From: Dehalococcoidia bacterium
Lineage (GTDB): Bacteria; Chloroflexota; Dehalococcoidia; Plut-88900
Direction of reading: 5' to 3'
DNA length: 64,000 nt
Assembly (NCBI GenBank): GCA_965197645.1
Contig: OZ240219.1
Location: 224,001 to 288,000 of the forward strand
This document shows, piece after piece, positions 18,789-48,930 of this stretch. Made by a program: the position numbers and the translations under genes. Below the pieces are notes generated by a model, which saw nothing but the letters and a program-made list of their open reading frames with translations, searched no databases and had not been told where the DNA came from. The stretch's first letter is position 1. Every line of letters starts with the position of its first letter.

Positions 18789-18803
18789 ATGCTCACGAGG
18801 CGC

Positions 18804-23361: not shown

Positions 23362-23380
23362 TCCCGGTCCACCACTCAGA

Positions 23381-23728
23381 TCAGGCCGGATCGTCCCGCA
23401 AGTTGGACTTCGCTTTCATTCGCCGCTTGCGTTCCTGCCACGCCTCGTAAGACTTGCCTGCCGCCGTGTCTTTGCCGGTGAACAGGATGTTATCTATCTG
23501 GGAGTAAGGAAGCGAGAACGGCCCGGCTCCCGACTCATCGAAATACTCGATAAGTGAGTCGTCCCCGCTGCTGTTTCGGTTGAAAATGTACCCGACGGTC
23601 TCTGTGCCATCGGTCTTACGGATGGTCGTGTTGCCTCGATAGTCGTAGGCTATGTCGATAATCCGGGAGATGGTCAGGTCTCCCCCCGGTTCCGGTATCC
23701 AGCCCTCCAGACTCTTCTCTCCCGGCAT
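23381..23728 (-). CDS. hypothetical protein within the hopanoid operon
   Basis: 115 aa, 'AYDYRGNTT', 'GYIFNR', 'FTGKDTAAGKSYEAW'; co-oriented with short gaps. Confidence 0.75.
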   Translation of the reverse strand: MPGEKSLEGWIPEPGGDLTISRIIDIAYDYRGNTTIRKTDGTETVGYIFNRNSSGDDSLIEYFDESGAGPFSLPYSQIDNILFTGKDTAAGKSYEAWQERKRRMKAKSNLRDDPA

Positions 23729-23748
23729 AACAGACCCTTACTCCGGCC

Positions 23749-24771
23749 TCAAAGCTTGCCCGTCATCGTGGCAACCGCCGAGTTCTTGAGTCCCTTCCAG
23801 GTGGAGAATGTGCTGTCCACGGCCGTGGGCTCGAAGCCGCAGTGGACCATGCAGTCCATGCACTTCGGGTTGCCGCTCCGCTTGCCGTAGTCCTCCCATA
23901 GCGTCTCTTCCAGAAGCTCCTTGAAGCTGTGGGCATACCCTTCCTGGAGAAGGTAACAGGGCCGCTGCCACCCGAACATGTTGTAGGTGGGGTTGCCCCA
24001 GGGAGTGCATTCGTAGTCATGCTTGCCCATGAGAAACTGGAGAAACAGGGGAGACTGGTTGAACCGCCAACCCCGCTTCTTGTCTTCTAGTATCTCTGCG
24101 AAGAGCTGGTTGGTCCTGGTCCTGCGAAGGAAATGCTCCTGGTCCGGCGCCTTGGAGTAGCTGTAGCCCGGGGACACCATCATCCCCTCGACACCCAGGC
24201 CCATCATTTCGTCGAAAAACTCTCTCACCCTTAGGGGTTGAGCATTATCGAACAGGGTGGTGTTGGTGGTGACCCTGAACCCCCGCTGGACCGCCTCTCT
24301 TATTCCTTCCACTGCCCTGTCATAGGTCCCGTCCTGGCACACCGCCTCATCGTGCTCCTCTTTCAGGCCGTCCATGTGGACGCTGAAGCTCAGGTACTTG
24401 GAGGGTTTGAGCACCCCCTGTTCCAGCTTCTTCTTCAGCAGGATGGCGTTGGTGCACAGGTAGATATACTTCTTGCGGTCCACCAGCTCCTTGACCAGCC
24501 GCTCGATCTCCGGATAGAGCAGCGGCTCTCCTCCGGGGATGCTGACGATGGGCGCTCCACACTCGTCCACGGCCGCCAGGCACTGCTCGACGGTTAGGCT
24601 CTTCTTGAGTATCTGCGGCGGATACTGGATCTTGCCGCAGCCGGCACAGGCCAAGTTGCACTTGAAGAGGGGCTCCAGCATCAGTACCAGGGGGTACCGC
24701 TTCCTCCTGAGCAGCTTCTGCTTCAGGACGTAGCCGGCGACGGTCAACATTTGGGATATTGGTACAGACAT
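23749..24771 (-). CDS. hpnH: adenosylhopane synthase, radical SAM
   Basis: 'YPLVLMLEPLFKCNLACAGCGKI', 'CTPWGNPT', 'C.DCMVHCGFE'. Confidence 0.95.
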   Translation of the reverse strand: MSVPISQMLTVAGYVLKQKLLRRKRYPLVLMLEPLFKCNLACAGCGKIQYPPQILKKSLTVEQCLAAVDECGAPIVSIPGGEPLLYPEIERLVKELVDRKKYIYLCTNAILLKKKLEQGVLKPSKYLSFSVHMDGLKEEHDEAVCQDGTYDRAVEGIREAVQRGFRVTTNTTLFDNAQPLRVREFFDEMMGLGVEGMMVSPGYSYSKAPDQEHFLRRTRTNQLFAEILEDKKRGWRFNQSPLFLQFLMGKHDYECTPWGNPTYNMFGWQRPCYLLQEGYAHSFKELLEETLWEDYGKRSGNPKCMDCMVHCGFEPTAVDSTFSTWKGLKNSAVATMTGKL

Positions 24772-24786
24772 AGTGAGATCTAAGTT

Positions 24787-25809
24787 CTAGTGCTCCCGCT
24801 CCAGGAAGAAGGCGGCCAGCCCCTCCAGCTCGCCGCGGGTGGAGGATGAGATTCCCATCGAATCAACACGGGACAGCGCCCTTTCTCGCTGTTCGGCGGC
24901 CAGCGATTGACAGTACTCCCGGGCGCCCAGTCTACCCAGCACGGCCAGCACCTCGTTTACCTTGTCCTCGCTGGGCTCTCCAGCCTGGAATAAACTCTGC
25001 ACCACCTTCCGGTTCTCTCCCGAGGACTCGTGGAGGGCGTAGACCAGGGGAAGGCACATCTTCTTTCGCCGAATATCCGACGCTACGGGCTTGCCGGTGG
25101 TCTCTTCCTTGCCCCATACGCCGAGAACATCGTCCCGTATCTGAAAGACCAACCCCAGCTCCCGCCCGCACTGCTTGAAGGACTGTACGATATCCGGTGA
25201 ATCTACGCCGATCAGCGCTCCGAGATAGAAGGCGCACTCGATCAGAGCGCCCGTCTTCCTGGAAATCATGTCCAGATACTGATCGGTGGTGGTCTCGGTA
25301 CGCTCCTCGAAGCTGATGTCCAGGTACTGCCCTTCTATCATCTCCAGGCAGGCCTTTTCGAGGCCTGCGAGGGCAGATACGAGCTTTTCTTTGGGGTAGC
25401 CGCAACCTCCGTTGACCAAGGTCAGGGTCGCCAGGCCCCGCATGGAATCGCCTGCGTTTATTCCCTGGGCCTTGCCCCATATCGCCCACACCGTCGGCTT
25501 ATGCCGACGCTCTTCGTCGCCGTCCTGAATATCGTCGTGGATCAACGAGAAGTTGTGTACCAGCTCCAGGGATACGGCGGCGGGAAGGGCATCTTCCCAG
25601 TTTCCGCCCACGGCCTCGCAAGCCCACAGGCACATCATCGGCCTCAACCCTTTGCCCGAAGAGCCGGAGATGGAAGCACCGCAATCGTCGACCCAGCCCA
25701 TGTGGTACCGGAGCATGTCGTAGAGGAGTAGGCCGTCGCCATCTATCGAGGCCTTGAGCCTGGCATCCAGTACGGGGACATATTTGTCGAAACTCTTGGG
25801 AAGTGCCAT
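24787..25809 (-). CDS. polyprenyl (FPP/GGPP) diphosphate synthase
   Basis: 'GKGLRP', FARM 'FSLIHDDIQD', 'GQYLD', 'KTG', SARM 'FQIRDD'. Confidence 0.92.
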   Translation of the reverse strand: MALPKSFDKYVPVLDARLKASIDGDGLLLYDMLRYHMGWVDDCGASISGSSGKGLRPMMCLWACEAVGGNWEDALPAAVSLELVHNFSLIHDDIQDGDEERRHKPTVWAIWGKAQGINAGDSMRGLATLTLVNGGCGYPKEKLVSALAGLEKACLEMIEGQYLDISFEERTETTTDQYLDMISRKTGALIECAFYLGALIGVDSPDIVQSFKQCGRELGLVFQIRDDVLGVWGKEETTGKPVASDIRRKKMCLPLVYALHESSGENRKVVQSLFQAGEPSEDKVNEVLAVLGRLGAREYCQSLAAEQRERALSRVDSMGISSSTRGELEGLAAFFLEREH

Positions 25810-25832
25810 AGGGCGAACCGATACTCTAGTAA

Positions 25833-27746
25833 TCAGCTTTTTGAGGAAGGGTTGGTGGGGATCTCACCGAGTGCGGATGCTCCAAACAGGTCCGGGAATG
25901 CCGCCTTTGCTCTGCGGACTATGCCGGGGCCGTCCAGGTCCAGCACCTCCCGGAGCTTGGCTCTGGGCCCATGCTCGATAAACTGGTCCGGCACGCCCAA
26001 CATGCTCATCTTGACTCCCCTGGGCATGATCCGGGATATCAGCTCCGCCACCCCGCTCCCGAATCCCCCCATGAGGACGTGCTCTTCGAGAGTCATTACC
26101 CGACCGGTGCGGCTGGCGCTCTCCAGGATGAGCTTTTCGTCAAGGGGCTTGGCGTAGCGAGCGTTGATCACGGAACATTCAACCCCGCCGGCGGATAGGG
26201 TCTCGGCCGCCTCCATAGCCGGATAGACCATGGATCCGATGGCCAGCAGCGTCAGGTCGTCGCCCTCCCTTAGCTGCTCGCCCGTGCCGATGGGGATGGT
26301 CCGAGGCTCGGTGTCCAACTCGACGCCGTAGCCTGTTCCCCTGGGATATCGCACGGCGATGGGCCCGTCGTGTCGCAGGGCGGTGTGGATCAAATGCTGA
26401 AGCTCGTTCTCGTCCTTGGGAGCAGCGACCACCATGTTGGGAAGACACCGCAAGAACGCTATATCGAATATGCCCTGATGGGTCTTGCCGTCCTCTCCAA
26501 CCAGCCCGGCCCGGTCCACGCCCAGCACCACGGGCAGGTTCTGAACGCACACGTCGTGGACTATCTGATCGAAGGCCCGCTGGAAGAAGGTGGAGTAGAT
26601 GGCCACCACCGGCCTGAGGCCACCGCTAGCCATCCCCGCAGCCTCGGTAACGGCCTGCTCTTCGGCCACTCCGACGTCGAATATCCGCTCGGGGAACCGG
26701 CCCTGCACCTGGTTGAGGCCCGTTCCTTCCAGCATTGCCGCACTCAACCCAACGACTGCTGGGTTGGCCTCCATCTGGCGTTCCAGGGTATCGGCGAAGA
26801 CCTTGGAGTAGGTTGGGGCGCCGCTTACCGATGGCGCCGGCGAGCTGGGTTGGTGGTACTTTATCGGGTCCTCTTCGGCGGGGGAGTAGCCCCGGCCCTT
26901 ATGAGTGATGACGTGGACCAGAGGCGGCTTGTCGGTGTATCGCTTGGCACGTCGGATCACCTTTTCCAGCTCGGAGATATCGTGCCCATCGATAGGACCG
27001 ATATATCTGAACCCCATGTCCTCCCACATCATCTTGGGAAGTATGAGGCCTTCGATACCGTACTTTATCTTCTGCGCCAGCCTCCAGACGAACTCGCCCT
27101 GGGGCAACGCCTTGGCCAACGACCGGCTGCCCTCGACCAGGGATTGAAAGTCGGGCCGCAGGGTTATCTTGTCACGCCAGTTGGTCAGCCACCCTATGTT
27201 CTCGGAGATCGACATTCCGTTGTCGTTGAGTATGACCATCAGGTTGTTGGGGTGCTGGTGAGCGATGTTGTTCAATCCCTCATAGCTGAGGCCCGAGGTC
27301 AGCGCACCATCGCCCAATACGCCCACCACGTACCCGTCTTCATGGGTGAGCTTCAAAGCGGTAGCGACGCCGAGGGCGGCCGCCAGCCCAGTCCCGGCAT
27401 GGCCGGCGCCAAAGGTGTCGTAGGGGCTCTCGGAAGGCTCGGCAAAACCGGACATGCCGCCCATGGTCCTGATCCCCTCGAACTCCTCCTTACGACCGGT
27501 TACCAGCTTGTGGGTGTAGCACTGGTTGCTGGTGTCCCACACTATCCGATCTCTGGGGCAGTCCAAGGCGCGGTGAAGAGCGAGGGTCAACTCGACGATG
27601 CCCAGGTTGGACGCCATGTGGCCACCGTTCTTGGTGATGACATCGATAATCCTCTTGCGGATCTCCTGGGACAGCCGGTCCAGGTCCTTGAAGGAGAGGG
27701 TCTTCAGATCCTTGGGGCCGTCTATCCTGTCCAGTATCTGGGACAT
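25833..27746 (-). CDS. dxs: 1-deoxy-D-xylulose-5-phosphate synthase
   Basis: 'GGHMASNLG.VELT', 'GDG..T.G..YE.LNN', 'NDN.MSI', 'DRAGLVGEDGKTHQG', 'RYPRG'. Confidence 0.96.
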   Translation of the reverse strand: MSQILDRIDGPKDLKTLSFKDLDRLSQEIRKRIIDVITKNGGHMASNLGIVELTLALHRALDCPRDRIVWDTSNQCYTHKLVTGRKEEFEGIRTMGGMSGFAEPSESPYDTFGAGHAGTGLAAALGVATALKLTHEDGYVVGVLGDGALTSGLSYEGLNNIAHQHPNNLMVILNDNGMSISENIGWLTNWRDKITLRPDFQSLVEGSRSLAKALPQGEFVWRLAQKIKYGIEGLILPKMMWEDMGFRYIGPIDGHDISELEKVIRRAKRYTDKPPLVHVITHKGRGYSPAEEDPIKYHQPSSPAPSVSGAPTYSKVFADTLERQMEANPAVVGLSAAMLEGTGLNQVQGRFPERIFDVGVAEEQAVTEAAGMASGGLRPVVAIYSTFFQRAFDQIVHDVCVQNLPVVLGVDRAGLVGEDGKTHQGIFDIAFLRCLPNMVVAAPKDENELQHLIHTALRHDGPIAVRYPRGTGYGVELDTEPRTIPIGTGEQLREGDDLTLLAIGSMVYPAMEAAETLSAGGVECSVINARYAKPLDEKLILESASRTGRVMTLEEHVLMGGFGSGVAELISRIMPRGVKMSMLGVPDQFIEHGPRAKLREVLDLDGPGIVRRAKAAFPDLFGASALGEIPTNPSSKS

Positions 27747-28248: not shown

Positions 28249-29634
28249 CTAACTCCCGTGGCCACCCTCCACGCCGCCGGTGCGTCGGAATGCGGCTATG
28301 AAAAGGGCGTAGGCAGCAACCATGAGCAGGGCTCCCGCGGCATAGACCACCGTCAGCGACACGAATCCGATTACCGCATAAGCGAGGAGAGGCCCCAGCG
28401 CCGAGCCGGTGTCCTGCCACGAGGCGTACCTGCTCATCACCTGGGCCCGCCGGTGGAGCGGGGCCAGGCCTCCAACCAGGGCATCCAGGGACGTTAGTGA
28501 GGCGGCCGTGGCGACGAAGGCCAACGGCAACCACAGCAGCGTCAACCAGAGCAGTGCCGGATAGGCCAGCAGTACCAGCCCGGCGAGACAAATGGGAGCG
28601 GAGAAGAGCAGGACTCGCACCCGGCCGTACCTGTCGCTGAGATGGCCGAGGAAGGGCGCAAACATGGTTGCTATCCAATCGGTGGCCAGAAGCACCCCGT
28701 TCAACGTGGCCACGCCTATGAGCACCCCACTGAGGGTCACTCCGTCACCCAGCTCCTGGTTGAGGTAGAATCCCAGTGTAGCCACCAGTACCCCGTTGAG
28801 GACGACGTGAAACGAAAAGTAGGTGAAGTTAGCGGCTAACAGCTGACGAAGCCTCCGGGCTTCGAGCTCGGGTACCGGCGATACCAGCAGGTCCCATATC
28901 CGGTTTCGTCCTTCGGCGGAGTAGTGAGGAATGGGATTCATACGTTCCGTGCTCTTGTAGGCTGCAGATGGCCGTCCCTTTTCGGCGGACTCGCCTCGAC
29001 CCAGCGCCAGGGTAACGGGGAGGCTGAGGAGGCCCAACCCGGCCACGATGAAGAAGCTGGTGGCCCGGCCCGTGAGATCAAACAGAAGGCCTCCCAGCAA
29101 CACACCCACGGCGCTCCCGGCTCGCTGGCCGCCGCTGAAGAACCCCATCATCCGGCCCCTGTCCCCTTCTCCGCTGGACTCCAGGACTACCAGGTACCCG
29201 CTCAATCGCAGCAACGAGTAGCAGAGTCCCCACAGTATCCGGGCGATCAGCAGAACAGCGAATCCCTCTCCCGCTCCGTAGGCGACGGTTGTCCCCACCG
29301 ATAGGACCACTGCGAACAGAAGCGGTCGATCCAGTCCGAATCGATCAAGTACCCAGGCCGCCATGGGATTGGATACGATGCGTACGAGCCGGTTGGCGCT
29401 GAGCAGCACTCCCACCATCCCGGTGGGCACACCGAATGCGGACACCTGGGCGGGGAGCACGTTGTAGAGCATGGAATCTCCCATGATCACGGCGCCTACG
29501 ATGGTCGTGACCAGAAGTACCCGCTTGGAGACCAACCCGGCTCCCTTGACTCGGTCCATGTACGGAGTCCCTATAAACGAACTAATGAAGTCCAGTTTAT
29601 CACCGGGGCTCCGGGCCGATGACGAACGTTCCAC
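28249..29634 (-). CDS. MFS transporter
   Basis: About 12 hydrophobic segments, 'DRFG', 'LSDRYGR'; true start may be later; divergent from the grdE-like genes. Confidence 0.88.
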   Translation of the reverse strand: MERSSSARSPGDKLDFISSFIGTPYMDRVKGAGLVSKRVLLVTTIVGAVIMGDSMLYNVLPAQVSAFGVPTGMVGVLLSANRLVRIVSNPMAAWVLDRFGLDRPLLFAVVLSVGTTVAYGAGEGFAVLLIARILWGLCYSLLRLSGYLVVLESSGEGDRGRMMGFFSGGQRAGSAVGVLLGGLLFDLTGRATSFFIVAGLGLLSLPVTLALGRGESAEKGRPSAAYKSTERMNPIPHYSAEGRNRIWDLLVSPVPELEARRLRQLLAANFTYFSFHVVLNGVLVATLGFYLNQELGDGVTLSGVLIGVATLNGVLLATDWIATMFAPFLGHLSDRYGRVRVLLFSAPICLAGLVLLAYPALLWLTLLWLPLAFVATAASLTSLDALVGGLAPLHRRAQVMSRYASWQDTGSALGPLLAYAVIGFVSLTVVYAAGALLMVAAYALFIAAFRRTGGVEGGHGS

Positions 29635-29741
29635 ACCTGCAGCATCAATGTGGTAATTGGGGCCTCCGTATAGTAAAGTGGGCCGCGCACGGAGTCGGAC
29701 GCCCCGCGATACTCGGATCTCAGTCCGTTGGAGCTACTGCG

Positions 29742-31034
29742 ATGAAGCTTGAGCTAGGCAACTTCAGGGTGGACCAAATCTCCATTGGCCGGGAAGCCAC
29801 CAGGCTGGAAAACGGCGTTCTCCACGTCAACGAAGGCGAAGTGAAGGAGCTGGTGCTTTCCGACCACCACTTCAGCGACGTCCGGCTTCACCTTGCCTAT
29901 CCCGGCGACCCAATACGCATCGTTCACGCCCTGGACGTGGTGGAGCCGCGGCACAAGGTGTCGGGTCAGGGGACCGTGTTCCCGGGCCAGCTCGGGCCGC
30001 CCATAACCGTCGGGACGGGCCGTACCCATCGATTGACGGGCATGGCGCTTGTCGCCGTCGGCGAGCCCGTAGAGGGGGAGACCACCTACTGGCGAGAGGC
30101 ACTCATCGACATGTCCGGGCCGGGGGCCGAGTACTCCTGCTACTCCCGGACGGCCAACCTGGTCATGGAGGTCATATCGGCCCCACCTCGGGGCGCCAGG
30201 CCGGAAGACCTAGAGATCATCGACGTCATAAGAGGCTCCGAATACTCCCGGCAATACAATGAGGCCCTGAGGCTGGCGGGATTCCGGTTGGCGGACTATT
30301 TGGCGAGCGCCACAAGAGACCTTCAGCCTGAAAGCATCGACACCTACGAGTTGCACGACGTGGACCCGTCTCTTCCCAGGGTGGTCTACTCCACCCAGTA
30401 CGCCATGTTCGCATACGGCGAGTACACCGGCTGGCAACCCACTTTCATGCATCCCAACGAGCAGTTGGACGGCGCTATACACCAGGGCTTCAACGGCACA
30501 GGCAGTACCAGGGACGGCACTTACGGCTTCCAGAACGATCCGGTCATCGAAGAGCTGTACAACCGGCACGGCAAGGACTTGAACTTCTTCGGTATGCTGC
30601 TGTGTCCCCTGGGCGGCGAACGGCTGGTGGAGAAGGAACGGATCGCCAGCTATGCAGTGAAGCTGCTCAAGATGGCCCGGATAGACGGGATCATCGAGGC
30701 CTGGGTAGGCGGCGGCCACCCGGGCATCGATTCCATGCTTCTGATGCAGAAGTGCGAGCAGGCCGGCATAAGTACCACCCTCCTCAACCCGGAGATGGCC
30801 CGCACCCAGGACGACACCGGATTCGTTCACTTCGTCCCCGAGGCAGACGCCATAGTCAGCTTGGGCAACTATGAGCGCAAGATAACCCTACCGCCCATGG
30901 AGAACGTCATAGGCGGCACTCACATATTCGAGTCCGGCGAAGACGCCTCCGGCAGCCTCACTCTGACCCTCCGGCACATGTACGCCGCCACCAGTACCCT
31001 GGGCCTAAGCAAGATGATGGGAGTCCAGTACTAG
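29742..31034 (+). CDS. glycine/sarcosine/betaine reductase component B proprotein-like subunit (GrdE/GrdG/GrdI family), paralog 1
   Basis: 'MKLELG', 'DVVEPR.KV.G...FPG', 'IDMSGPGAEY', 'HPNE.LDGAI', 'QNDPVIEELY.RHGKDLNF'; start reassigned to ATG 29742. Confidence 0.88.
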   Translation: MKLELGNFRVDQISIGREATRLENGVLHVNEGEVKELVLSDHHFSDVRLHLAYPGDPIRIVHALDVVEPRHKVSGQGTVFPGQLGPPITVGTGRTHRLTGMALVAVGEPVEGETTYWREALIDMSGPGAEYSCYSRTANLVMEVISAPPRGARPEDLEIIDVIRGSEYSRQYNEALRLAGFRLADYLASATRDLQPESIDTYELHDVDPSLPRVVYSTQYAMFAYGEYTGWQPTFMHPNEQLDGAIHQGFNGTGSTRDGTYGFQNDPVIEELYNRHGKDLNFFGMLLCPLGGERLVEKERIASYAVKLLKMARIDGIIEAWVGGGHPGIDSMLLMQKCEQAGISTTLLNPEMARTQDDTGFVHFVPEADAIVSLGNYERKITLPPMENVIGGTHIFESGEDASGSLTLTLRHMYAATSTLGLSKMMGVQY

Positions 31035-31053
31035 CCAGGTTTGAGGATCCGCT

Positions 31054-32346
31054 ATGAAGCTTGAGATCGGCAATTTCACGGTAGATCGGTTCTCGGTTGG
31101 CGATGGAGGGACCGGGCTGGAAGACGGGGTCCTCCACGTTGACGAGAACGAGGTCAAGCAGCTGGTACTGGCCGACGGTCACTTCAGCGAGGTCAGGCTG
31201 CATCCCGTCTATCCGGGGGACTCGACTCGGATCATTCACGCCATGGACACGGTGGAGCCGCGGCACAAGGTATCGGGTCCGGGTACAGTGTTTCCGGGCA
31301 CCCTGGGACCTCCCACTACCGTCGGCGAGGGGCGCACTCACCGGTTGTCCGGCATGGCGCTGATAACCGTCGGTGAACCGGTCCTGGGAGAATCGACCTA
31401 CTGGCGAGAGGCGATCATCGACATGTCCGGGCCCGGGGCCGGTTACTCCTGCTACTCCCGGACCGCCAACCTTGTGATGGAGCTGCTCCCGGCTGCCCTC
31501 AAAGAGACTGAATCCGCTTACGTGGAGAATCTCGGTACCGTCTGGGGCTCGGCCTACTCCAGGGACTACAACCAGGCCGTCAGGGCCGCGGGTTTCAAGG
31601 TGTCCGACTACCTGGCAGGGGTCACCAGTGCCCTAGAGCCTGAGAGCATCGACACCTACGAGCTAACCGACGCGGACCCTTCGTTGCCCACGGTGGTCTA
31701 CGCCTCGCAGAACGCAATGATGGTCTACGGGACTAGCACCGGATGGCAGCCGACCTTCATGCACCCCAACGAGCTACTGGACGGGGCCTTACACCACGGC
31801 TTCAATGGACCCGCCAGCATCAGGGACGGCACGTATGGCTACCAGAACGATCCGGTCGTCAAGGAGCTGTACGCCCGACACGGAAAGGACCTGAACTTCT
31901 ACGGCTTGCTTCTCTTCCCGATGGGCGGTGAGAGGCTGGACGAAAAGGAGCGTATTACCAGCTACGCAGTCAAGCTCCTCCAGATGGTGGGAGCAGACGG
32001 GATAGTGGAGTCCTGGGTAGGCGGCGGCCACCCGGGCATCGACTCTATGCTCCTCGCCCAGAAGTGCGAGCAGGCCGGCATAGCGGTCTCTCTCTTAAAC
32101 CCCGAGATGGCCCCTACCCAGGAGGACACCGGGTTCGTCCACTTCGTTCCCGAGGCGGACGCCATAGTTAGTCTCGGGAACTACGAGCGTAAGATAAGCC
32201 TGCCGCCTGTGGACAAAGTCATAGGCGGGACCCACATATTCGAGTCTGGCGAAGACGCCTCCGGCAGCTGCGAGGTAACCATCCGGCACATGTACGCCGC
32301 TACGAGCACCGTTGGCCTGAGCAACATAGCCGGGGTACAGTACTAG
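31054..32346 (+). CDS. GrdE/GrdG/GrdI-family subunit, paralog 2
   Basis: Co-linear and highly similar to paralog 1 over the whole length. Confidence 0.88.
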   Translation: MKLEIGNFTVDRFSVGDGGTGLEDGVLHVDENEVKQLVLADGHFSEVRLHPVYPGDSTRIIHAMDTVEPRHKVSGPGTVFPGTLGPPTTVGEGRTHRLSGMALITVGEPVLGESTYWREAIIDMSGPGAGYSCYSRTANLVMELLPAALKETESAYVENLGTVWGSAYSRDYNQAVRAAGFKVSDYLAGVTSALEPESIDTYELTDADPSLPTVVYASQNAMMVYGTSTGWQPTFMHPNELLDGALHHGFNGPASIRDGTYGYQNDPVVKELYARHGKDLNFYGLLLFPMGGERLDEKERITSYAVKLLQMVGADGIVESWVGGGHPGIDSMLLAQKCEQAGIAVSLLNPEMAPTQEDTGFVHFVPEADAIVSLGNYERKISLPPVDKVIGGTHIFESGEDASGSCEVTIRHMYAATSTVGLSNIAGVQY

Positions 32347-32468
32347 ACTGGAGCACGGGGCAAGCGTCGGATCCGTCCTCTGCTTCGAGCCCGCCGTGTT
32401 CGGATCTCGCAAGACCGCAGAAGCCCACAACGTCGCAAGCGGTATATAGGGGCCTCATCGCAACGTTG

Positions 32469-32497
32469 TTGAATTGCCCCTTGCATTGAGATAGTAT
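32469..32497 (+). promoter_or_regulatory. candidate sigma70 promoter for grdB
   Basis: TTGAAT, 17 nt, TAGTAT. Confidence 0.45.
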
Positions 32498-32538
32498 CTA
32501 ACCTGTACGGACCCGCTGTTCCGAGATTGGGAGGGATC

Positions 32539-33858
32539 ATGGCCAAACTAAAAGTCGTGCACTACTTGAACCAGTTCTTCGCCGGCGTAGGCGGGGAGGA
32601 AAAGGCCGACACGCCTCCCGCTTCCAGGGAAGGCCCCACGGGACCGGGAATCGCCTTGGACAAGGCCTTTGGTGACGATGCGGAGGTAATCGGCACCGTC
32701 TACTGTGGCGACAACTACATCGCCGAACAGGGCGAGCCGGCCACCGACCAAGTCATCGAGCTGATCTCCCAGTTCAACCCTGACATCGTGGTCGCCGGCC
32801 CGGCTTTCGGTTCCGGACGCTACGGACTTGCCTGTGGCCAGGTCTGCCAAGCGGCCATCGAGAGCCTGAAGGTGGCGGCGATTACAGGCGCCCACAAGGA
32901 TAGTCCGGTCGCCGAGGCCTACAAGGGCAAGGTCCTGATGGCCTCCACCCGAGACACCGGCGCCGGTATGAACGATGCCGTTCCCGTCCTGACCAGGTTG
33001 GCTCTCAAGCTGGCCAGGCACGAAAATCTGGGGCCCGCTGGGGAAGAGGGCTATCTTCCCACGGGCCGTCGGGAAAACGAGTTCTCCGATAAAACCGCTG
33101 CTCACAGGGGCGTCGAGATGTTGCTGCGAAAGCTGCGGGGCGAAGACCCCCGGACCGAGTGGCCGCTGCCCCGGTACGATCGGGTCGCCCCCGCCCCGCC
33201 CATACAAGACCCCAGCGCAGCAACCCTGGCCCTGGCTACCGAAGGAGGCCTCGTCCAGCGGGGCAACCCGGACAAGCTGGAATCGGCTTGGGCCACCAAA
33301 TGGTTGAAGTTCGATATCGCGGAACAGCCGGCCATGTCGACCGAGACCTATCAGAGCATCCACGGCGGCTTCGATACGACGGCCATCAGCGCCGAACCCA
33401 ACCGGCTGGTGCCCCTGGACGTGGTACGCGACGCTGAAAAGGAAGGCGAGATAGGGAAGGTCCACGACTATCTTTACAGCACCACGGGCAACATGGGGCC
33501 CATCACCAGCATGAAGCAGTTCGGACAGGAGATCGCCGCTGAGCTATCGGCGGCCGGGGTAAGCGGGGTGATACTCACCGCAACCTGAGGCACCGGCACG
33601 CGTAGCGGCGCTACGCTGGCCAAGGAGCTGGAGCGGGCGGGACTTCCCACCGCTCTCGTCACCGCCCTGCACAATCTGGCGGAGAACGTGGGCGCCAACC
33701 GGATAGTCAAGGGCAAGGCTATCCCCCATCCCCTCGGCGACCCGTCCCGATCTCCTGAGCAGGAGCAAGAGGTGCGCAAGAAGGTGCTGGACCAAGCCCT
33801 CGAGGCGTTGAAAACCCAGGTGGACGGACCTACGGTATTCGAGGGCGCGGAAGCCTAA
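32539..33858 (+). CDS. grdB: glycine/betaine/sarcosine reductase selenoprotein B (Sec at TGA 33586-33588, codon 350), 439 aa
   Basis: 'VVHYLNQFFAGVGGEEKAD', 'GPAF..GRYG.ACG', 'HGGFD', 'VILTAT-U-GTGTRSGATLAKELERAG..VGANRIV..IPHPLGDP' continues in frame to TAA 33858. Confidence 0.93.
33600..33616 (+). promoter_or_regulatory. SECIS-like hairpin of grdB
   Basis: GCGTAGC-GGC-GCTACGC, loop starting 19 nt after the UGA. Confidence 0.7.
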
Positions 33859-33872
33859 CGCACAGACTCCCT

Positions 33873-35330
33873 ATGGTTGCCGCCAACGGAAGAAACCCAG
33901 TTGTAAAGGGCGTCACTTACTGCCTGGCCCACGTGCCGGACCTGGTGAGGCACGGCTCCAAGCCTTCGAGGGACATCCCCAGGGATCCGGCGCTTTCGGC
34001 CACGCTGTTGGACCACTGGCGGCCTTTCGAGGAGGCGGTGACCTACCCGCCCAACCAGGTGTTTCTGGGAAACCTTCGACCGGATGACTTGGCCAAGGCG
34101 CCCAAGCCCTGGTTCCGGAACCCTCACATGGAGGGCGGTCGCTTCGGCGCCTACGGCGAGATCATGCCCCAGGAAGAGTTCTACGCCCTGATGAAGGTCT
34201 CGGACCAGTTCGACCTGGTCATGTTGGAGGAGGAGTTCACATCCGAGGCGAGGGCACTGCTGGCCGCACACCCCCTCTTCACCGAGGAGGACGTCGAGCC
34301 ACTGGAGCAAGGCGTACCCCTGGACAAGATCCGGGAGGTGCTGAACGAAGGCACAGCCCTGCCCCTCTATACCGAAAAGGACCGCCTTGTAGGCTGCTTC
34401 CAGCGGGCCCACGAAGAGGACAAGGCTCTGACCGCCGACTCCCTGATCGAAAACCTGGCCGCCAAGGCAACGGCGGCGCTGGCCCTGCGCCACGCCTTCG
34501 ACAAGGTCCCGTCCATCCGGCCCACGGATATCGACTACCTGCTGGGGTGCGGCGAGGAGGCCATCGGCGACCGGTACAACCGGGGCGGCGGCAATCTCGC
34601 CAAGGCCGTCGGCGAGATGTGCGGATGCGTCAACGCCACCGGCTCGGACGTCAAGGCCTTCTGCTGTGCACCCAACCATGCAGTAGTCATCGGCGGCTCG
34701 CTGATCCAATCGGGTGTCTTCGATGAGATCGCCATAGTGGCCGGCGGCTCATTTGCAAAGCTAGGCATGAAGTACCGTGGTCACGTTACCAACGACATGC
34801 CCATCCTGGAAGACGTGCTGGCCTCGGTAGCCATATTCATGGGCCCCGACGACGGCGAAAACCCCAAGGTCCGCCTGGACATCATCGGCAAGCACGATAT
34901 CTCATCGGGGTCGTCCAACCAGGCCATCACCCAAGCCGTGGTGGTTGATCCCCTCAAGAAGCACGGCTTCAAGATCACCGACATCGACCGTTACGCCACG
35001 GAGCTGCACAACCCCGAGATAACCGAGCCCCAGGGCAGCGGCAACACCCCTCGGACCAACTACCGCATGCTGGGCGGCATGGCCGTCAAGGAGGGGGAGA
35101 TAGAGGTCAGCGGACTGGACCAGTTCGTGGAGGACCACGGCATGGTCGGTTTCTCGCCCACCCAGGGGCATATCGCCTCGGCGGTGCCGTTCATAGGACA
35201 CGCCAGAGACATGATCCTGTCCGGCGATATCCAGCGGACCATGTTCTACGCCAAGGGCAGCCTGTTTCTGGGGCGGATGACCAACCTGTCGGACGGAATC
35301 TCCTTCATAATGGAGAGCAACGAGTTGTAA
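33873..35330 (+). CDS. grdC: glycine reductase component C beta subunit (GrdC-like)
   Basis: 'LAHVPDLVRHGSKP', 'YPPNQVFLGN', 'EEAIGDRYNRGGGNLAKA', 'ELHNPEITEP.G.G', 'GF.PTQGHI', 'KGSLFLGRMTNL.DG.S'. Confidence 0.9.
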   Translation: MVAANGRNPVVKGVTYCLAHVPDLVRHGSKPSRDIPRDPALSATLLDHWRPFEEAVTYPPNQVFLGNLRPDDLAKAPKPWFRNPHMEGGRFGAYGEIMPQEEFYALMKVSDQFDLVMLEEEFTSEARALLAAHPLFTEEDVEPLEQGVPLDKIREVLNEGTALPLYTEKDRLVGCFQRAHEEDKALTADSLIENLAAKATAALALRHAFDKVPSIRPTDIDYLLGCGEEAIGDRYNRGGGNLAKAVGEMCGCVNATGSDVKAFCCAPNHAVVIGGSLIQSGVFDEIAIVAGGSFAKLGMKYRGHVTNDMPILEDVLASVAIFMGPDDGENPKVRLDIIGKHDISSGSSNQAITQAVVVDPLKKHGFKITDIDRYATELHNPEITEPQGSGNTPRTNYRMLGGMAVKEGEIEVSGLDQFVEDHGMVGFSPTQGHIASAVPFIGHARDMILSGDIQRTMFYAKGSLFLGRMTNLSDGISFIMESNEL

Positions 35331-35374
35331 ATGGGATATAATGGACGCCAAGCTCGAGCACGGAGGTGAACCAC

Positions 35375-35836
35375 TTGGATCTCAAAGGTAAGAAAGTAAT
35401 TGCCATAGGGGAAAGAGACGGTGTCCAGGGCCCAGCCATTTCAGAGTGTGTCGAGAGCGCCGGCGCCGAGGTGATACTGGAACAGACCCAGTGCTTCGTC
35501 TGAACTGCCGCAGGTGCCATGGACCTGGATGGTCAGGAAAGCATTAAGCGGATTATAGACGAGACCGGCAGGGATGACGTTGTAGTCGTCCTCGGCTCTC
35601 CGGATGCCAACAGCGCGGAGCTGTACGCCGAGACGGTTACCCACGGCGATCCCACCTGGGCCGGTCCCTTGGCCGGAGTACCCTTGGGACTGCCCGTGTA
35701 CCACATCATCGAGCCTGAGGTGAAGGCCACGGTGGATCCCGGCGTGTACGAAGACCAGGTGGGGGTCATGGACGTGGCCCTGGAGTCCGACAAGATTTCG
35801 GACGCCCTGAACAAGGTTAGAGAGAAAGATAGCTAA
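35375..35836 (+). CDS. grdA: glycine reductase selenoprotein A (Sec at TGA 35501-35503), 153 aa
   Basis: TTG start after GGAGGTG; '[18 protein letters not shown]', '[13 protein letters not shown]', '[26 protein letters not shown]'. Confidence 0.95.
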
Positions 35837-35971
35837 AGGAAAAGTTTCCCGTCGAGCAGAAGCCGCCGGCTGAGCACTCCGCACAGTTGGCGGCTTTACC
35901 TTGCGGGGAGAAGACCCATGGGTTCAAGACTGAGAGTAGACACCTCTCCTGCCCCTCCACAGCGATAGGAC

Positions 35972-37138
35972 GTGTCGGATACGAAGCAGCTGGTCATCAT
36001 AGGCTCAGGCCCCTATGGCTTGGCCGTCGCCGCCTACGCAAAGCACCTGGGCCTGGACTTCACTCTGCTGGGGCCGCCCATGGGCCTGTGGCGAAACCAT
36101 ATGCCCCGGGGCCTCCTACTACGCTCGCCGACGGACTGGCATGTCGATTCCGTGGGCGGTCGCTCCTTTAACGATTTCCTGGAAAGCAGGGGCCTCACGC
36201 CCGAGGACGTCTTCCCAATACCCGTCGAGCTGTTCCTGGAGTACACCGACTGGTTCACAGCAGAAAACGATCTACGGACCGACCCTCGCCTCGTCAAGAC
36301 CCTCAGCCGACAGGACTCGCTGTTCGAACTCGTGTTGGAGACCGGTGAGACGATCAGGACTAGCAACGTAGTGGCCACCCTGGGTATGCCCTACTTCAAG
36401 CACGTCCCCGACGAGCTGGCGAAGATGATTCCCGAGCACCAGCTTTCCCACGCCGTTGACTCCGTGAACTTCGAGTTTCTGCGAGATAAGGACGTGTTGA
36501 TCGTCGGCGGCAGGATGACCGCTTTCGAGTGGGCGGTACTTATGGCCGAGCAGGCCAATGCTCAGGCCCACATCGTCCACCGCCACAAGACTCCTCCTTT
36601 CGTGAACTCCGACTTCTCGTGGATATGGCCCGAGGTGCAAAACACCACCTACGTCCGCGGCTGGTTCAGGAACCTCCGCGAAGCCCAACAAAAACAGATC
36701 GACAAGCGGTTCTACAAAGAGGGGCGGCTTAAGATGGAGCCCTGGCTCAAGCCCCGGCTTGATGCTGGTGGAGTGCGTATATCAGCCAACACGGCTATCC
36801 GCTCAGCCCGTCCCGGGCCCAACGGCCGTCTCGACGTGGAGTTGGACAACGGAACCTCCGTGACCGTGGACCACGTGATGCTGGCCACGGGTTACCGACT
36901 GGACCTGAAACGCGTTCCCTACATCGCCAACGGGAACATCCTGGACGACCTTCGGATAAACGAGCGAAGCCCCGTGCTGGACGAGGACTTCCGGTCCAGT
37001 ATTCCCGGTCTCTACTTTACCGGGCTGTCCGCCGTCCAGGATTTCGGTCCCTATTTTGGGTTCTGCGTGGGAAGTCCCTCGGCGGGCCGGGTGATAGGCA
37101 GGAGCCTAGAAAAGACTGCCGGCGCCCGCTCCTCCTAG
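35972..37138 (+). CDS. FAD/NAD(P)-dependent oxidoreductase (flavoprotein monooxygenase-like)
   Basis: 'IIGSGPYG', 'W..HMP.G..LRS', degenerate second 'VGGRMTA.E', 'ATGY', 'PGLYF.G'. Confidence 0.85.
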   Translation: MSDTKQLVIIGSGPYGLAVAAYAKHLGLDFTLLGPPMGLWRNHMPRGLLLRSPTDWHVDSVGGRSFNDFLESRGLTPEDVFPIPVELFLEYTDWFTAENDLRTDPRLVKTLSRQDSLFELVLETGETIRTSNVVATLGMPYFKHVPDELAKMIPEHQLSHAVDSVNFEFLRDKDVLIVGGRMTAFEWAVLMAEQANAQAHIVHRHKTPPFVNSDFSWIWPEVQNTTYVRGWFRNLREAQQKQIDKRFYKEGRLKMEPWLKPRLDAGGVRISANTAIRSARPGPNGRLDVELDNGTSVTVDHVMLATGYRLDLKRVPYIANGNILDDLRINERSPVLDEDFRSSIPGLYFTGLSAVQDFGPYFGFCVGSPSAGRVIGRSLEKTAGARSS

Positions 37139-37221
37139 CTCGGACGGGGCTTGACCCCACACCTACGTCTAGGGCACATTAAGCACCGTATTTCCATGCC
37201 TCGAAATCGGAGGAGAACTGC

Positions 37222-38784
37222 ATGTACGCCGAAGATCTCGCCGTCGTGAACGGCAACGTCATCACCATGGAACCGGACCAACCGTCCGCCGAAGCCGTGC
37301 TCATACACGACGGGCGCGTTGTCCACGTCGGCACCACGGAGGAGGTTCGAAGGGTGGCGCCTGCCGTACAGATCTTCGATTGCGAAGGGAGGACGGTAGT
37401 ACCGGGCTTCATCGACGCCCACTGTCACCTGGAGATGACCTGCCTGGCCGCCGACTACACCGTGGCGTGCCACGCTCCCCCGATGAAAAGCCTGTCCGAG
37501 ATTGCGGCGGCAATGCGCCGGAAAGCTGAACTGACAACGCCCGGCCAATGGATAATCGGTCGAAGCTCCTTCACCCTCTACTCGAAGGTGGAGGAGGGCC
37601 GGCTGTTCACCCGGCAGGAGCTGGACTCGATTTCGGAGCAACACCCTATCATTGTGTTCGCCGGGTTCCACGTCGGGATGCTCAACACCCTGGGCATGAA
37701 GAAGCTGGGCCTGTGGAACAAGGTCGATAGTCCGCCCAGGGGAGTGGTCATCAACCAGGACGAAGCTGGAGAGGCCACCGGCGTCGTTACCGAGATATGG
37801 GACCTGATGCCCTCGTTTTCGGCGGCCGAGACCAGGGACGCGCTCAGGTCGAAGGTGGTGGAGCTCTTCGTCTCCAAGGGGATCACCTCGGCCTACACGA
37901 TACCCTTCTCCTCCGACGATATACGATCGATCCAGGAGCTGCAGCCGGCGGGCGAGTTTCCGTTGCGCATTAGGCTCTACTACCACGTCCCCAAGCTGGT
38001 CTCGCTGGACTCGTTGCTGGCGATGGGAATGAGACCGGGATTCGGCAGCGACATGCTGAAATACGGCGGGGTCAAGATATTCGTCGATGGGACAGCCAAC
38101 GACGGCTACGGCAACCCGGTCGAAGACTTCAAATGGACCGCGCGGGAACTCAATCGGTTCGTTTCCCGGGCCCACGATGGCGGCCAGCAGCTGTTCATGC
38201 ACATCGCCAGCATACCCGCGATAACGATGGCGGCGGACGCTGTCGAAGCCGCTCTACGCAAAACGACGATGCCTCACCGGCACCGGATAGAGCACGGCGC
38301 AGATAACATCCAGGACCCGGAGGACATGAAGCGAATACAGAGCCTGGGCATCGGAATGGTGGCTACACCCCAGTTCATCTATAGCGGGGGGAGCAAGCGG
38401 AGACGGAGCGGCCCAAAGCGCGCCCGGTTCCGCACTCTGATAGACCACGGCATCGAAATCATAGGCGCCAGCGACGCCACCGGCACCGTGCCCGATGGGG
38501 TGGCGCCCCTGTTCAACATCGCCTGCGCTGCGGTGCGTCGAAACGTATCCGGCGAAATCCACGACGTCGAGGAGCGGATAACCGCCGAGGAGGGGCTGAA
38601 AATGTTCACCACGTGGGCTGCCAAGGGCGGCTACGAGGAGCATGAAAAGGGTTCCGTCGCCGTGGGCAAGCTGGGAGACCTGGCCGTCCTGTCGAACGAC
38701 CCGCTGGAAGCAAAGGACGACGAGCTGTACAACATCGACGTGGAGGCTACTATCCTGGGCGGCCAGGTGGTGTACGAAAAGTAG
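37222..38784 (+). CDS. YtcJ-like metal-dependent amidohydrolase (Amidohydro_3)
   Basis: 'PGFIDAHCH', 'KIFVDG', 'HRIEH', 'SD', 'KGS..VGKLGDLAVL', 'T..GGQVVYE'. Confidence 0.9.
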   Translation: MYAEDLAVVNGNVITMEPDQPSAEAVLIHDGRVVHVGTTEEVRRVAPAVQIFDCEGRTVVPGFIDAHCHLEMTCLAADYTVACHAPPMKSLSEIAAAMRRKAELTTPGQWIIGRSSFTLYSKVEEGRLFTRQELDSISEQHPIIVFAGFHVGMLNTLGMKKLGLWNKVDSPPRGVVINQDEAGEATGVVTEIWDLMPSFSAAETRDALRSKVVELFVSKGITSAYTIPFSSDDIRSIQELQPAGEFPLRIRLYYHVPKLVSLDSLLAMGMRPGFGSDMLKYGGVKIFVDGTANDGYGNPVEDFKWTARELNRFVSRAHDGGQQLFMHIASIPAITMAADAVEAALRKTTMPHRHRIEHGADNIQDPEDMKRIQSLGIGMVATPQFIYSGGSKRRRSGPKRARFRTLIDHGIEIIGASDATGTVPDGVAPLFNIACAAVRRNVSGEIHDVEERITAEEGLKMFTTWAAKGGYEEHEKGSVAVGKLGDLAVLSNDPLEAKDDELYNIDVEATILGGQVVYEK

Positions 38785-43461: not shown

Positions 43462-44712
43462 TTGGAAGCCCAGACTGAAAACGCTCCTCCTTACCGATGG
43501 GTCATCATCACGTCGCTTACCGCGCTGACGGCGACGCACCTGACCATCATCTACACCATCGGCATCCTGCTGCCGGACATCGCCGAGGATCTGGACCTGT
43601 CCCCTTCCGAGCAGGGCTGGCTCGGCTCGTCGGTGCTCCTGGCCAATCTCTTCTTCGCCATCCCCCTGAGCACTTTGCTCACCCGGTTCCGCCCATGGAG
43701 GGTCGTTGCGCTCCTGTCTCTGGCCGTAGGGCTGTTCGGTCTGCTACAGGGCTGGTCTCCCATCCTGGCGATCTTGCTGATAGGGCGTGTGGGGTCTGGG
43801 TTGGGCTTTACGGCCGCCATGGCGCCCCGGGCCTTGCTGATCCAGCAGTGGTCCAGCCCCAGACAGCTTCCCGTTACCAACGGCATATGGATAGGCGGCG
43901 TAGACCTGGTAATGGGTATAGGTTTCTTCCTCATCCCCCTGGTCATCAAGTTGTGGGGATGGCAGAGCACCTACTACTTTCTGGGCGGCATCGGGTTGGT
44001 TCTCGCCGCCGTATGGATCATCGTTGGCCGTGAGCGGGAGACAGTAGAATACAAGAAGCGCGCCGATTCCCAGGACACCACTCCCCTTTCAGCGATTTTC
44101 AGGCATCCTGAGCTATGGATGTTGGCCCTGGGAATGACGGGTTCCATGATGGGGAATACCGGCTTTCAAGTGTTCTGGCCAAGGTTCGCGGAGGAACAGC
44201 TCGGTATCTCTCTCCAGATCATCGGAATAGCCCTGGGGCTGAGCTCATTTGCCGCCGCTCCCATCGCTTTCGTAGTGAACGCCGTGCCGACCCTACTCCG
44301 GAAACAACCCGCAGTCTTGGCCGTAAGCGGGATAGCCGTCACCGGCGTCTACATGGGCCTCCTCTTCGCCACCTCCACCCCGACAGTACTGGCGCTGGGC
44401 TTCGCCGAGGGGCTATCGAGGGCCTACTTCCCTGTGCTGATGACCATGGTGTACCAGATGCCGGGTATCAAGCCGCGGGAGGTGGGAGTCGGTCTGGCTT
44501 TCATGGAGACCTGCATATGGGGGGGCGGCGCCATCGGCCCGTTGGTGGTCGGATTCGTGGAGGAATCGACTGGCGACCTACGGCTAGCCATCATGATCAT
44601 CTCATTCGCGCCGCTGGTGCTTCTGATAACGTCGGGAATGCTAATGGCCAGACGCTGGTCCCCGATGCCCCAAGCGCCTCCCGAAAGCTCGGCGCTACCC
44701 CAGGAGCTTTGA
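43462..44712 (+). CDS. MFS transporter
   Basis: About 12 hydrophobic segments in two halves. Confidence 0.85.
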   Translation: MEAQTENAPPYRWVIITSLTALTATHLTIIYTIGILLPDIAEDLDLSPSEQGWLGSSVLLANLFFAIPLSTLLTRFRPWRVVALLSLAVGLFGLLQGWSPILAILLIGRVGSGLGFTAAMAPRALLIQQWSSPRQLPVTNGIWIGGVDLVMGIGFFLIPLVIKLWGWQSTYYFLGGIGLVLAAVWIIVGRERETVEYKKRADSQDTTPLSAIFRHPELWMLALGMTGSMMGNTGFQVFWPRFAEEQLGISLQIIGIALGLSSFAAAPIAFVVNAVPTLLRKQPAVLAVSGIAVTGVYMGLLFATSTPTVLALGFAEGLSRAYFPVLMTMVYQMPGIKPREVGVGLAFMETCIWGGGAIGPLVVGFVEESTGDLRLAIMIISFAPLVLLITSGMLMARRWSPMPQAPPESSALPQEL

Positions 44713-45792: not shown

Positions 45793-45794
45793 GA

Positions 45795-47441: not shown

Positions 47442-47626
47442 GGCTGTCTCCGGTCCGGGAGTTCCTGTCGAATGGAACAGGATCGCCTGTCACCTAGAAT
47501 AGGATCGAATTTAAACAACGCCTCTCCCGTTGTCAAATGGGCATCCTTCTCCAACACAGGGCTATGCCCGTATAATATGGGGCCTAGACCAGAACGCCCA
47601 CCTGTAGCGACGGGAAAGGAACGGAG

Positions 47627-48847: not shown

Positions 48848-48930
48848 AAAAGATACCCTCGTTGTTCACAATAGCGGCGTCTGGTGGTGCTCCGAAGACT
48901 CCTTGACCAGAGATCGAAAGGGGGAAGGCT

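Follow-up and report, generated by a model that had tools for sequence, protein, structure and literature searches.

Grd reductases are energy-conserving enzymes of strict anaerobes, in which the acetyl phosphate made by GrdD yields ATP. Glycine reductase GrdABCDE (Peptoclostridium (Eubacterium) acidaminophilum, Clostridium sticklandii, C. difficile), betaine reductase GrdHI, and fluoroacetate reductase (FarE, NF053623) are the described systems with which we compared a Grd-type gene cluster found in a 64,000-nucleotide stretch of DNA from a Dehalococcoidia bacterium (contig OZ240219.1 of assembly GCA_965197645.1; hereafter “the window”, positions 224001-288000 of the genome). This genome is a single contig of 3.21 Mb, with about 61% G+C and a completeness of 94% by marker count; coordinates below follow the window numbering unless marked as genome. 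An earlier note on this DNA had read the cluster as a non-canonical Grd-type reductase. Its gene list and coordinates are all borne out by profile matches (Table 1), and the reading itself stands, with departures at Cys242 of GrdE, in the selenocysteine (Sec) motif of GrdB, in GrdD, and in the acetyl-phosphate enzymes. On balance, we lean towards a working non-canonical Grd-type selenoprotein reductase in an oxygen-respiring Dehalococcoidia bacterium, with the mechanism proposed below; it probably cleaves a compound beyond the characterised Grd substrates, without acetyl phosphate as the end product.

Like glycine reductase, the window system has a Sec-containing GrdA with a CxxU motif, a Sec-containing protein of the GrdB family, a GrdE-family partner, a GrdC scoring above its equivalog cut-off, and a hairpin 3' of the UGA codon for decoding Sec. 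Unlike glycine reductase, it has no GrdD, no Cys242 and thus no pyruvoyl group, UxxGxxS in place of UxxCxxC, and a GrdB that lacks the glycine motif; its cluster contains neither trxA nor trxB and its genome neither AckA nor Pta. The gene order differs as well (E-E-B-C-A in the window, E-A-B-(A)-C-D in glycine reductase), and the host of the window carries a haem-copper oxidase. All the reading frames of the cluster are intact. The GrdB-GrdC-GrdA core is present in 10 of the 11 other genomes of the family, and the nearest GrdC, GrdB, and GrdA proteins (72%, 71%, and 79% identity, respectively) come from metagenome-assembled genomes (MAGs) titled Dehalococcoidia. Across the genome, a single GrdA and a single GrdC stand beside three GrdB paralogues and six GrdE-like genes, and the relatives hold 4-9 GrdE-like genes per genome, often as tandem pairs or triples; by analogy with the known systems, this looks like the logic of several protein B sets sharing A and C.

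According to PMC9908766, the Cys-derived pyruvoyl of GrdE is carried by a labelled peptide spanning aa 242-266, and by residue numbering, position 242 of a Peptostreptococcaceae GrdE (L066) is the Cys of SGN-C-VSACDK. Both window GrdE-like proteins, which are 73% identical to each other, have an Asn at this position, in an alignment that is gap-free between the anchors DGA and TY. The start of GrdE-like 1 is probably at 29742, since the family model begins at residue 42 of the longest open reading frame (ORF) and leaves the 41 extra N-terminal residues uncovered. Among the best 120 database relatives of GrdE-like 2, none has a Cys at 242 and 86 have an Asn. A tree of 89 GrdE rows is split, with a support of 100 in the Shimodaira-Hasegawa-like approximate likelihood ratio test (SH-aLRT), into sides of 37 and 52 rows. 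Cys242 is found in 0 of the 37, which include the window pair, the four other paralogues of the same genome, family relatives, most other Dehalococcoidia, one paralogue of Candidatus Formimonas warabiya, and rows from a Burkholderiales MAG, an Actinomycetota MAG, and Sporobacter; the 52 rows of the other side comprise 44 with Cys242 and 8 GrdI-like ones. Judging from these sequences, the GrdE-like subunits would be unprocessed and devoid of a pyruvoyl cofactor. A Ser-derived pyruvoyl was considered and rejected, as the aligned residue is an Asn and a downstream Ser is not kept in all the paralogues. Neither GrdE-like 1 nor GrdE-like 2 reaches the cut-off of the GrdG model NF040793 (244 and 222 bits for a cut-off of 780), and no relatives of GrdB, GrdE, or GrdC were found by sequence in the PDB.

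The Sec motif of the window GrdB reads TATUGTGTRSG; both Cys of UxxCxxC, named in a 2026 review (PMC13188914) as the motif thought to meet GrdA, are gone. UGTCTRCG is found in 54 of the 66 GrdB rows compared; UGTGTRSG is common to the window GrdB, both its paralogues in the genome, the family relatives, and one Formimonas paralogue, and the GrdB proteins of other Dehalococcoidia families read UGTSTRSG, UGTGTRCG, or UGTDTRCG. The only subfamily model that the window GrdB passes is TIGR01918 (500 bits, cut-off 65). It stays below the glycine model TIGR01917 (463 bits, cut-off 602), the GrdF model NF040794 (497 bits, cut-off 800), and the GrdH model NF040795 (421 bits, cut-off 775), as well as the D-proline reductase model TIGR04483 (81 bits, cut-off 300). 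Of the two motifs taken from PMC9751293, the glycine-type GrdB motif matches 29 of the 66 rows and not the window GrdB, and the GrdF motif matches neither the window GrdB nor any of the 66 rows. Three supported clades of the GrdB tree exclude the window protein: that of the glycine motif; that of GrdH, to which L063 and L069 belong (790 and 838 bits, both over the NF040795 cut-off); and a putative sarcosine clade, which includes a Formimonas cluster whose level increases on glycine betaine and which PMC9768040 interprets as a sarcosine reductase. The earlier note named nesting of the subunits within characterised betaine/glycine reductases as part of what would refute its reading; the GrdB and GrdE trees show no such nesting, in that the subunits fall outside the glycine, betaine, and putative sarcosine clades.

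The fluoroacetate enzyme belongs to the same Pfam family and is a Grd-type complex acting on X-CH2-COO− with a leaving group that is not an amine; compared by model score and not by tree, the window GrdE-like proteins reach only 102 and 111 bits for a cut-off of 675 (NF053623). As far as sequence criteria go, the window system appears to fall outside the glycine, sarcosine, betaine, fluoroacetate, and proline enzymes alike. The cultured anaerobe Candidatus Formimonas warabiya has one protein B set that falls into the unusual class of the window proteins (L058:2169-4763, + strand), with Tyr at GrdE position 242 and UGTGTRSG in GrdB; it adjoins a canonical GrdA-GrdC-GrdD. This set is not among the proteins in the seen parts of the proteome paper (PMC9768040). 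GrdA and GrdB are reported as not detected in PMC1976440.

The missing cysteine is shared with betaine reductase, whose substrate subunit also lacks the pyruvoyl-forming Cys and which also works with several protein B sets, one GrdA, and protein C. The window cluster could be its functional equivalent, turning glycine betaine or a close quaternary analogue into a tertiary amine and an acetyl unit, with the flavoprotein oxidising the amine. The neighbouring flavoprotein does look N-oxygenating, of the class B monooxygenase type, and the RNA runs in which pieces of the locus occur carry the label sponge metagenome; sponge hosts are rich in betaines. We, nevertheless, consider this reading unlikely. 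GrdH keeps UxxCxxC (L063, L069) and GrdD is present in the betaine system; the window GrdB stays far from the GrdH cut-off and outside the clade of L063 and L069, and the GrdE-like proteins lie across the split of support 100 from the GrdI-like rows. Moreover, the transporter is of the major facilitator superfamily (MFS) and matches no betaine-transporter model, none of the 11 other family genomes has the flavoprotein, and PF00743 does not match it at E ≤ 1e-3.

The second group of departures concerns protein C. GrdD was found in the genome neither by profile search (NF040747, no match at E ≤ 1e-3) nor by tblastn (best E 3.5), for which the query was the GrdD part (550 bits with NF040747) cut from a fused GrdC-GrdD ORF of Terrisporobacter; the genome holds no second locus with grdD. 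That ORF (Terrisporobacter vanillatitrophus, L063:10007-12574, + strand) is a single frame of 855 aa scoring 821 and 550 bits for GrdC and GrdD, and it appears to be a natural fusion. Among 80 loci with GrdC, GrdD lies directly 3' in 57 and is absent in 23, one of which (L107) ends inside GrdC, cannot be judged, and was left out. The GrdC tree has a branch with an SH-aLRT of 100 that sets the window and the 22 judged GrdD-less loci apart from the other 57 rows, all of which have GrdD directly 3' of GrdC. The GrdD-less loci bear the titles Dehalococcoidia, Brevibacillus massiliensis, Syntrophobacterales, Desulfogranum, and Deferrimicrobia, or come from MAGs labelled Burkholderiales, Actinomycetota, Nitrospira, and Deltaproteobacteria; five of the other genomes with such a locus were searched and none has a GrdD over the cut-off. 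Two positions follow this split: C252 is found in 23/23 members of the GrdD-less lineage, where the other lineage has L, C, or A, and C231 in 0/23 of them compared with 55/57 GrdD-linked proteins. The lack of grdD, on which the earlier note had built, therefore holds for this cluster and this genome, and fails as a special trait of theirs, since a whole GrdC lineage in several phyla goes without GrdD.

The GrdD-less loci of Deferrimicrobia, Thermodesulfobacteriota, Actinomycetota, a Burkholderiales MAG, and Brevibacillus massiliensis share with the window the GrdC lineage, the C-A order, and the absence of GrdD. Unlike the window, they mostly have a canonical GrdE (C242) and GrdB (UGTCTRCG), and some carry a thioredoxin gene between grdB and grdC. 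The GrdD-less GrdC lineage and the Cys-free protein B are, thus, two independent traits, because the Deferrimicrobia-type loci have the first with canonical GrdE and GrdB, and Formimonas has a Cys-free protein B beside GrdC-GrdD; the window combines both. ORF clustering over the 23 GrdD-less loci and the window, with an ORF caller that is noisy on high-GC DNA, revealed no conserved replacement of GrdD near GrdC and recovered only GrdE, GrdB, GrdA, an ABC transporter, and thioredoxin. Within the sampled genomes of the class, GrdC passes its cut-off in 32 of 301 and GrdD is found in none of the 301 at E ≤ 1e-10. GrdD, AckA (0/12), and Pta (0/12) were not found in the 12 family genomes; AckA occurs in 1 of the 32 GrdC-positive class genomes (G024) as against 34 of the 301 overall, a contrast to be taken as a pattern and not as a statistical test because the genomes are related and mainly belong to two families. 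The literature searched, in the parts seen, gives no account of GrdD-less Grd systems or of GrdD loss; supplements and subscription journals lay outside the search, among them the supplementary tables of PMC9751293 on Dehalococcoidia Grd, which may bear on the question.

These absences also bear on the most conventional explanation, namely an ordinary glycine or sarcosine reductase whose acetyl phosphate is made by a protein that we did not recognise. GrdA and GrdC do pass their equivalog cut-offs, the public labels on the relatives are generic or read “glycine reductase” or “sarcosine reductase”, and Dehalococcoidia Grd is read as glycine reductase in PMC9751293. Yet Cys242 is missing, the GrdB and GrdF motifs do not match, the specific models all score below their cut-offs, and neither GrdD nor AckA nor Pta was found; we regard this explanation as very unlikely.

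Returning to the non-canonical reductase that we favour, we infer its substrate class, its carboxymethyl relay, its product, and its electron donor as follows. Protein B would be composed of Sec-GrdB and the two unprocessed GrdE-like subunits. Since there would be no pyruvoyl cofactor, the substrate could not bind as a Schiff base, and by analogy with betaine reductase it would most likely be X-CH2-COO−, X being a good leaving group (quaternary nitrogen, sulfonium, or similar). The selenol of GrdB would take the carboxymethyl group and hand it over to the Sec of the single canonical GrdA, which would be common to the two further GrdB and four further GrdE-like paralogues encoded elsewhere in the genome. 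The last step would fall to GrdC alone, probably as a homodimer; because GrdD, AckA, and Pta were not found in the family genomes, the acetyl group would be released by hydrolysis or to coenzyme A (CoA), and not as acetyl phosphate, so that acetate or acetyl-CoA as the product would be the economical reading. On this reading, the enzyme would serve catabolism or assimilation and not substrate-level phosphorylation. Reducing power would presumably come from the thioredoxin encoded beside the tRNA-Sec gene.

Modelling of GrdC speaks for the homodimer. The homodimer model has a score of 0.95, for 0.00 in the best of three controls; among calibration proteins, 20 of 30 solved as two copies of one chain reached the mark, as did 1 of 23 solved as single chains. 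At least 87% of the contacts recur between runs, the pLDDT (predicted local distance difference test) is at least 92, and the modelled interface involves residues 227-242 and 251-263, including C231, R234, Y235, and C252. Six of the 16 positions that discriminate the GrdC lineages lie in this interface, which we did not use as support. Cys264 is invariant in the context D-V-x-A-F-C, which we take to resemble that of the FabH nucleophile; a weak FabH match of the GrdC part of L063 is the sole computed support for this likeness. If Cys264 is FabH-like, GrdC could, therefore, carry the acetyl thioester itself. In its most ambitious form, which we put forward tentatively and think rather unlikely as a whole, the proposal would be that of an undescribed Grd class in aerobic, host-associated Dehalococcoidia: a GrdC homodimer whose C252 and C264 replace GrdD, a protein B with neither pyruvoyl nor CxxC, and carboxymethyl groups drawn from osmolytes (such as betaines and sulfonium acetates) and from amidohydrolase products and turned into acetyl-CoA, the 4-9 GrdE-like paralogues per genome giving different specificities around a shared GrdA and GrdC.

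Several observations bear on whether the system is functional. GrdA, the only one in the genome, has the motif CFVUTAAGAMD, in which CxxU is canonical. The genome search for selABCD suggested by the earlier note returned SelA (548 bits), SelB (347 bits), SelD (380 bits), and a tRNA-Sec gene, i.e., the complete Sec machinery. The match to SECIS_4 (Sec insertion sequence) after the grdB UGA is below the gathering score (31.5 bits for 38, E 6e-4). The hairpin CGUAGC-GGC-GCUACG, 14 nt 3' of the UGA, is found in 11/11 aligned sequences (the window, both its paralogues, seven relatives, and one Formimonas gene), and one of its base pairs shows a compensatory change; the UGA and the hairpin persist among paralogues and relatives whose proteins are 71-79% identical. 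SelD itself (genome 941844-942767) has one in-frame TGA. Two small PrdB-like ORFs (L005:1426-2250, + strand, and L006:1150-1953, − strand; genome ~2775824 and ~2794286) match the C-terminal part of the GRDB family, and in each the frame stays open for about 110 codons beyond an in-frame TGA (VPAU motif). Both probably encode additional selenoproteins, and no PrdA was seen nearby. A consensus scan for a terminator 3' of grdA gave none; by eye, a candidate hairpin is visible there at about 35866-35903.

Every sampled word of the locus is present in two sequencing runs, from which the locus may come, and four runs recorded as metatranscriptomic, labelled sponge metagenome, contain 7-12% of them. 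The contigs from these RNA libraries (78-456 nt, at least 95% identical, several without any difference) map to both GrdE-like genes, to GrdB (spanning its UGA and its junction with GrdC), to GrdC, to GrdA (again spanning the UGA), and to the first part of the flavoprotein gene and the last part of the hydrolase gene; the MFS gene and most of the flavoprotein and hydrolase genes have no such contig, which is no sign of silence. The literature searched, within the same limits as above, holds no link between sponge or SAR202 Chloroflexi and Grd reductases. One could still argue that these are relic genes or genes with some other role, with no working Grd complex here: measured against textbooks, protein C lacks a subunit, the genome yielded no thioredoxin reductase, and the host respires oxygen, whereas Grd enzymes are described as oxygen-sensitive in PMC13688921. 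We give this hardly any credence in view of the intact frames, the UGA and hairpin maintained among relatives of 71-79% identity, the full Sec machinery, the core kept in 10 of 11 other family genomes, and the RNA-library contigs. From the Sec machinery, the conserved SECIS-like hairpin, and these contigs, the system is probably functional, and we take it to be a real variant of Grd reductase whose final step is probably unlike the textbook one.

One has to keep in mind a number of points that weigh against this view. The Deferrimicrobia-type loci, with a canonical GrdE and GrdB, imply that the loss of GrdD alone is no sign of a new substrate, and an unrecognised analogue of GrdD may exist. 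The trees were built quickly with IQ-TREE (LG+G4, SH-aLRT as the only support measure) and have several long branches, and the deepest split of the GrdB tree has a support of just 60; they contain no Far sequences and none that pass the GrdF/GrdG cut-offs, so that the GrdF/GrdG and Far classes were judged by model scores and one motif. The family and class genomes are samples of organisms that are kin to each other, and the genome of the window is itself 94% complete. The homodimer score of GrdC may mirror its thiolase-like fold. The electron path has no assigned thioredoxin reductase, and the RNA-library contigs, all from one study, are a hint of transcription only, as DNA can occur in such libraries. 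Regarding the homodimer, thiolase-like enzymes are dimers in solved structures.

The picture of Grd reductases given in textbooks is changed: a whole Grd lineage does without GrdD and, in Dehalococcoidia, also without acetate kinase; the host encodes an oxygen-reducing oxidase; and the window joins this lineage to a large protein B clade that lacks both hallmark catalytic features. If our reading is correct, the last Grd step has an alternative solution, the substrates of the family reach beyond glycine, sarcosine, betaine, proline, and fluoroacetate, and the “glycine/sarcosine reductase” labels on hundreds of Chloroflexota proteins are probably wrong, which would affect metagenome-based predictions of amine and osmolyte turnover.

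Table 1. Features of the Grd-type cluster and of its surroundings in the window (window numbering).
Feature	Position	Strand	Basis and remarks
MFS transporter	28249-29634	−	PF07690, 132 bits; divergent from the grd genes
GrdE-like 1	29742-31034 (longest ORF from 29619)	+	PF09338, 330 bits
GrdE-like 2	31054-32346	+	PF09338, 315 bits
GrdB-like selenoprotein	32539-33858	+	PF07355, 441 bits; TIGR01918, 500 bits; TGA 33586-33588 = codon 350
SECIS-like hairpin	33589-33626	+	Rfam SECIS_4, 31.5 bits
GrdC	33873-35330	+	NF040746, 659 bits (cut-off 450)
GrdA	35375-35836	+	NF040748, 220 bits (cut-off 130); TTG start; TGA 35501-35503 = codon 43
Flavoprotein, class B monooxygenase-like	35972-37138	+	Pyr_redox_2, Pyr_redox_3
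YtcJ-type metal hydrolase	37222-38784	+	Amidohydro_3 (PF07969), 229 bits
Luciferase-like monooxygenase	44722-45792
Rieske oxygenase alpha subunit	47627-48847

The flavoprotein has the motifs GSGPYG and LATGY and no CxxC, groups in Atlas with Lys/Orn monooxygenase-like clusters, scores 29 bits with the thioredoxin reductase model TIGR01292 (cut-off 343), and has no homologue in the 11 other family genomes at E ≤ 1e-30. Lacking CxxC and family homologues, it is probably, on its sequence features, an accessory neighbour of the reductase. It was also considered as a substitute for TrxB, a role ruled out by the missing CxxC, the FMO/NMO-type motifs, and its absence from relatives.

The amidohydrolase had been suggested to release the substrate, and the MFS protein to import it. 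The first idea is partly upheld. Indeed, the sister genus has a core made of Amidohydro_3, cupin, luciferase-like monooxygenase family oxidoreductase, GrdB, GrdC, GrdA, and two EutA-like genes, with no GrdE within 10 kb, and in all nine sister-genus genomes the best match of the window hydrolase is this Grd-adjacent Amidohydro_3 (about 33-36% identity). A link between Amidohydro_3 and the Grd core is plausible because these best relatives all adjoin GrdB-GrdC-GrdA, and the hydrolase may act upstream of the reductase; its closest solved chains, 3icj and 3igh, are both uncharacterised hydrolases. The importer role is weakened: the MFS gene is not kept beside the Grd core in the sister genus, which has a different, CynX-like MFS upstream, and the window MFS gives no match to betaine-transporter models and only weak NCBIfam matches to MFS efflux and sugar-acid subfamilies. 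The link of this transporter to the reductase system is, thus, uncertain.

As the earlier note had it, there is no grdD, trxA, or trxB inside the cluster. The genome-wide search that it called for gave a mixed answer: a thioredoxin gene was found beside tRNA-Sec (genome 214783-215079, ~9 kb before the window), and a canonical TrxB was not, the best TIGR01292 match in the genome reaching 73 bits for a cut-off of 343 and the top three being other flavoproteins by Pfam. The tRNA-Sec gene and this thioredoxin gene, the only strong one of the genome, adjoin each other at genome 214533-215094. A 704-aa protein (genome 506804-508918, + strand), with Pyr_redox_2 and dimerisation domains and an unassigned N-terminal extension of ~245 residues, is a candidate disulfide reductase because the genome has no canonical thioredoxin reductase.

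The contexts of the other Grd-like loci of the genome (dehydrogenases, CoA-transferases, transposase) gave no clue to a substrate. At L029:9591-12264 (− strand; genome 529591-532264), a tandem GrdE-like pair has no GrdB near it and is flanked by four family III CoA-transferase genes, and at L028:5829-6866 (+ strand; genome ~2851829), the third GrdE-GrdB pair is preceded, at a distance of 2 kb, by a transposase gene of the IS1595 family.

The surroundings of the cluster do look oxygen-using, as claimed before, with a Rieske alpha subunit and a luciferase-like monooxygenase in the window and COX1, the subunit I of a haem-copper oxidase, in the genome (538 bits). In the region 44722-50016, the luciferase-like monooxygenase, an AMP-dependent ligase, the alpha subunit of the Rieske ring-hydroxylating oxygenase, and an ATC-hydrolase-like gene stand together, adjoined by a second MFS gene (43462-44712). 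On the other side of the cluster, a complete-looking hopanoid/isoprenoid block (16561-27746, − strand) contains genes for an amine-oxidase-like flavoprotein, two squalene/phytoene synthases, a squalene-hopene cyclase, an epimerase-like protein, PNP_UDP_1, a radical SAM protein with DUF3463, a polyprenyl synthase, and a DXP synthase.

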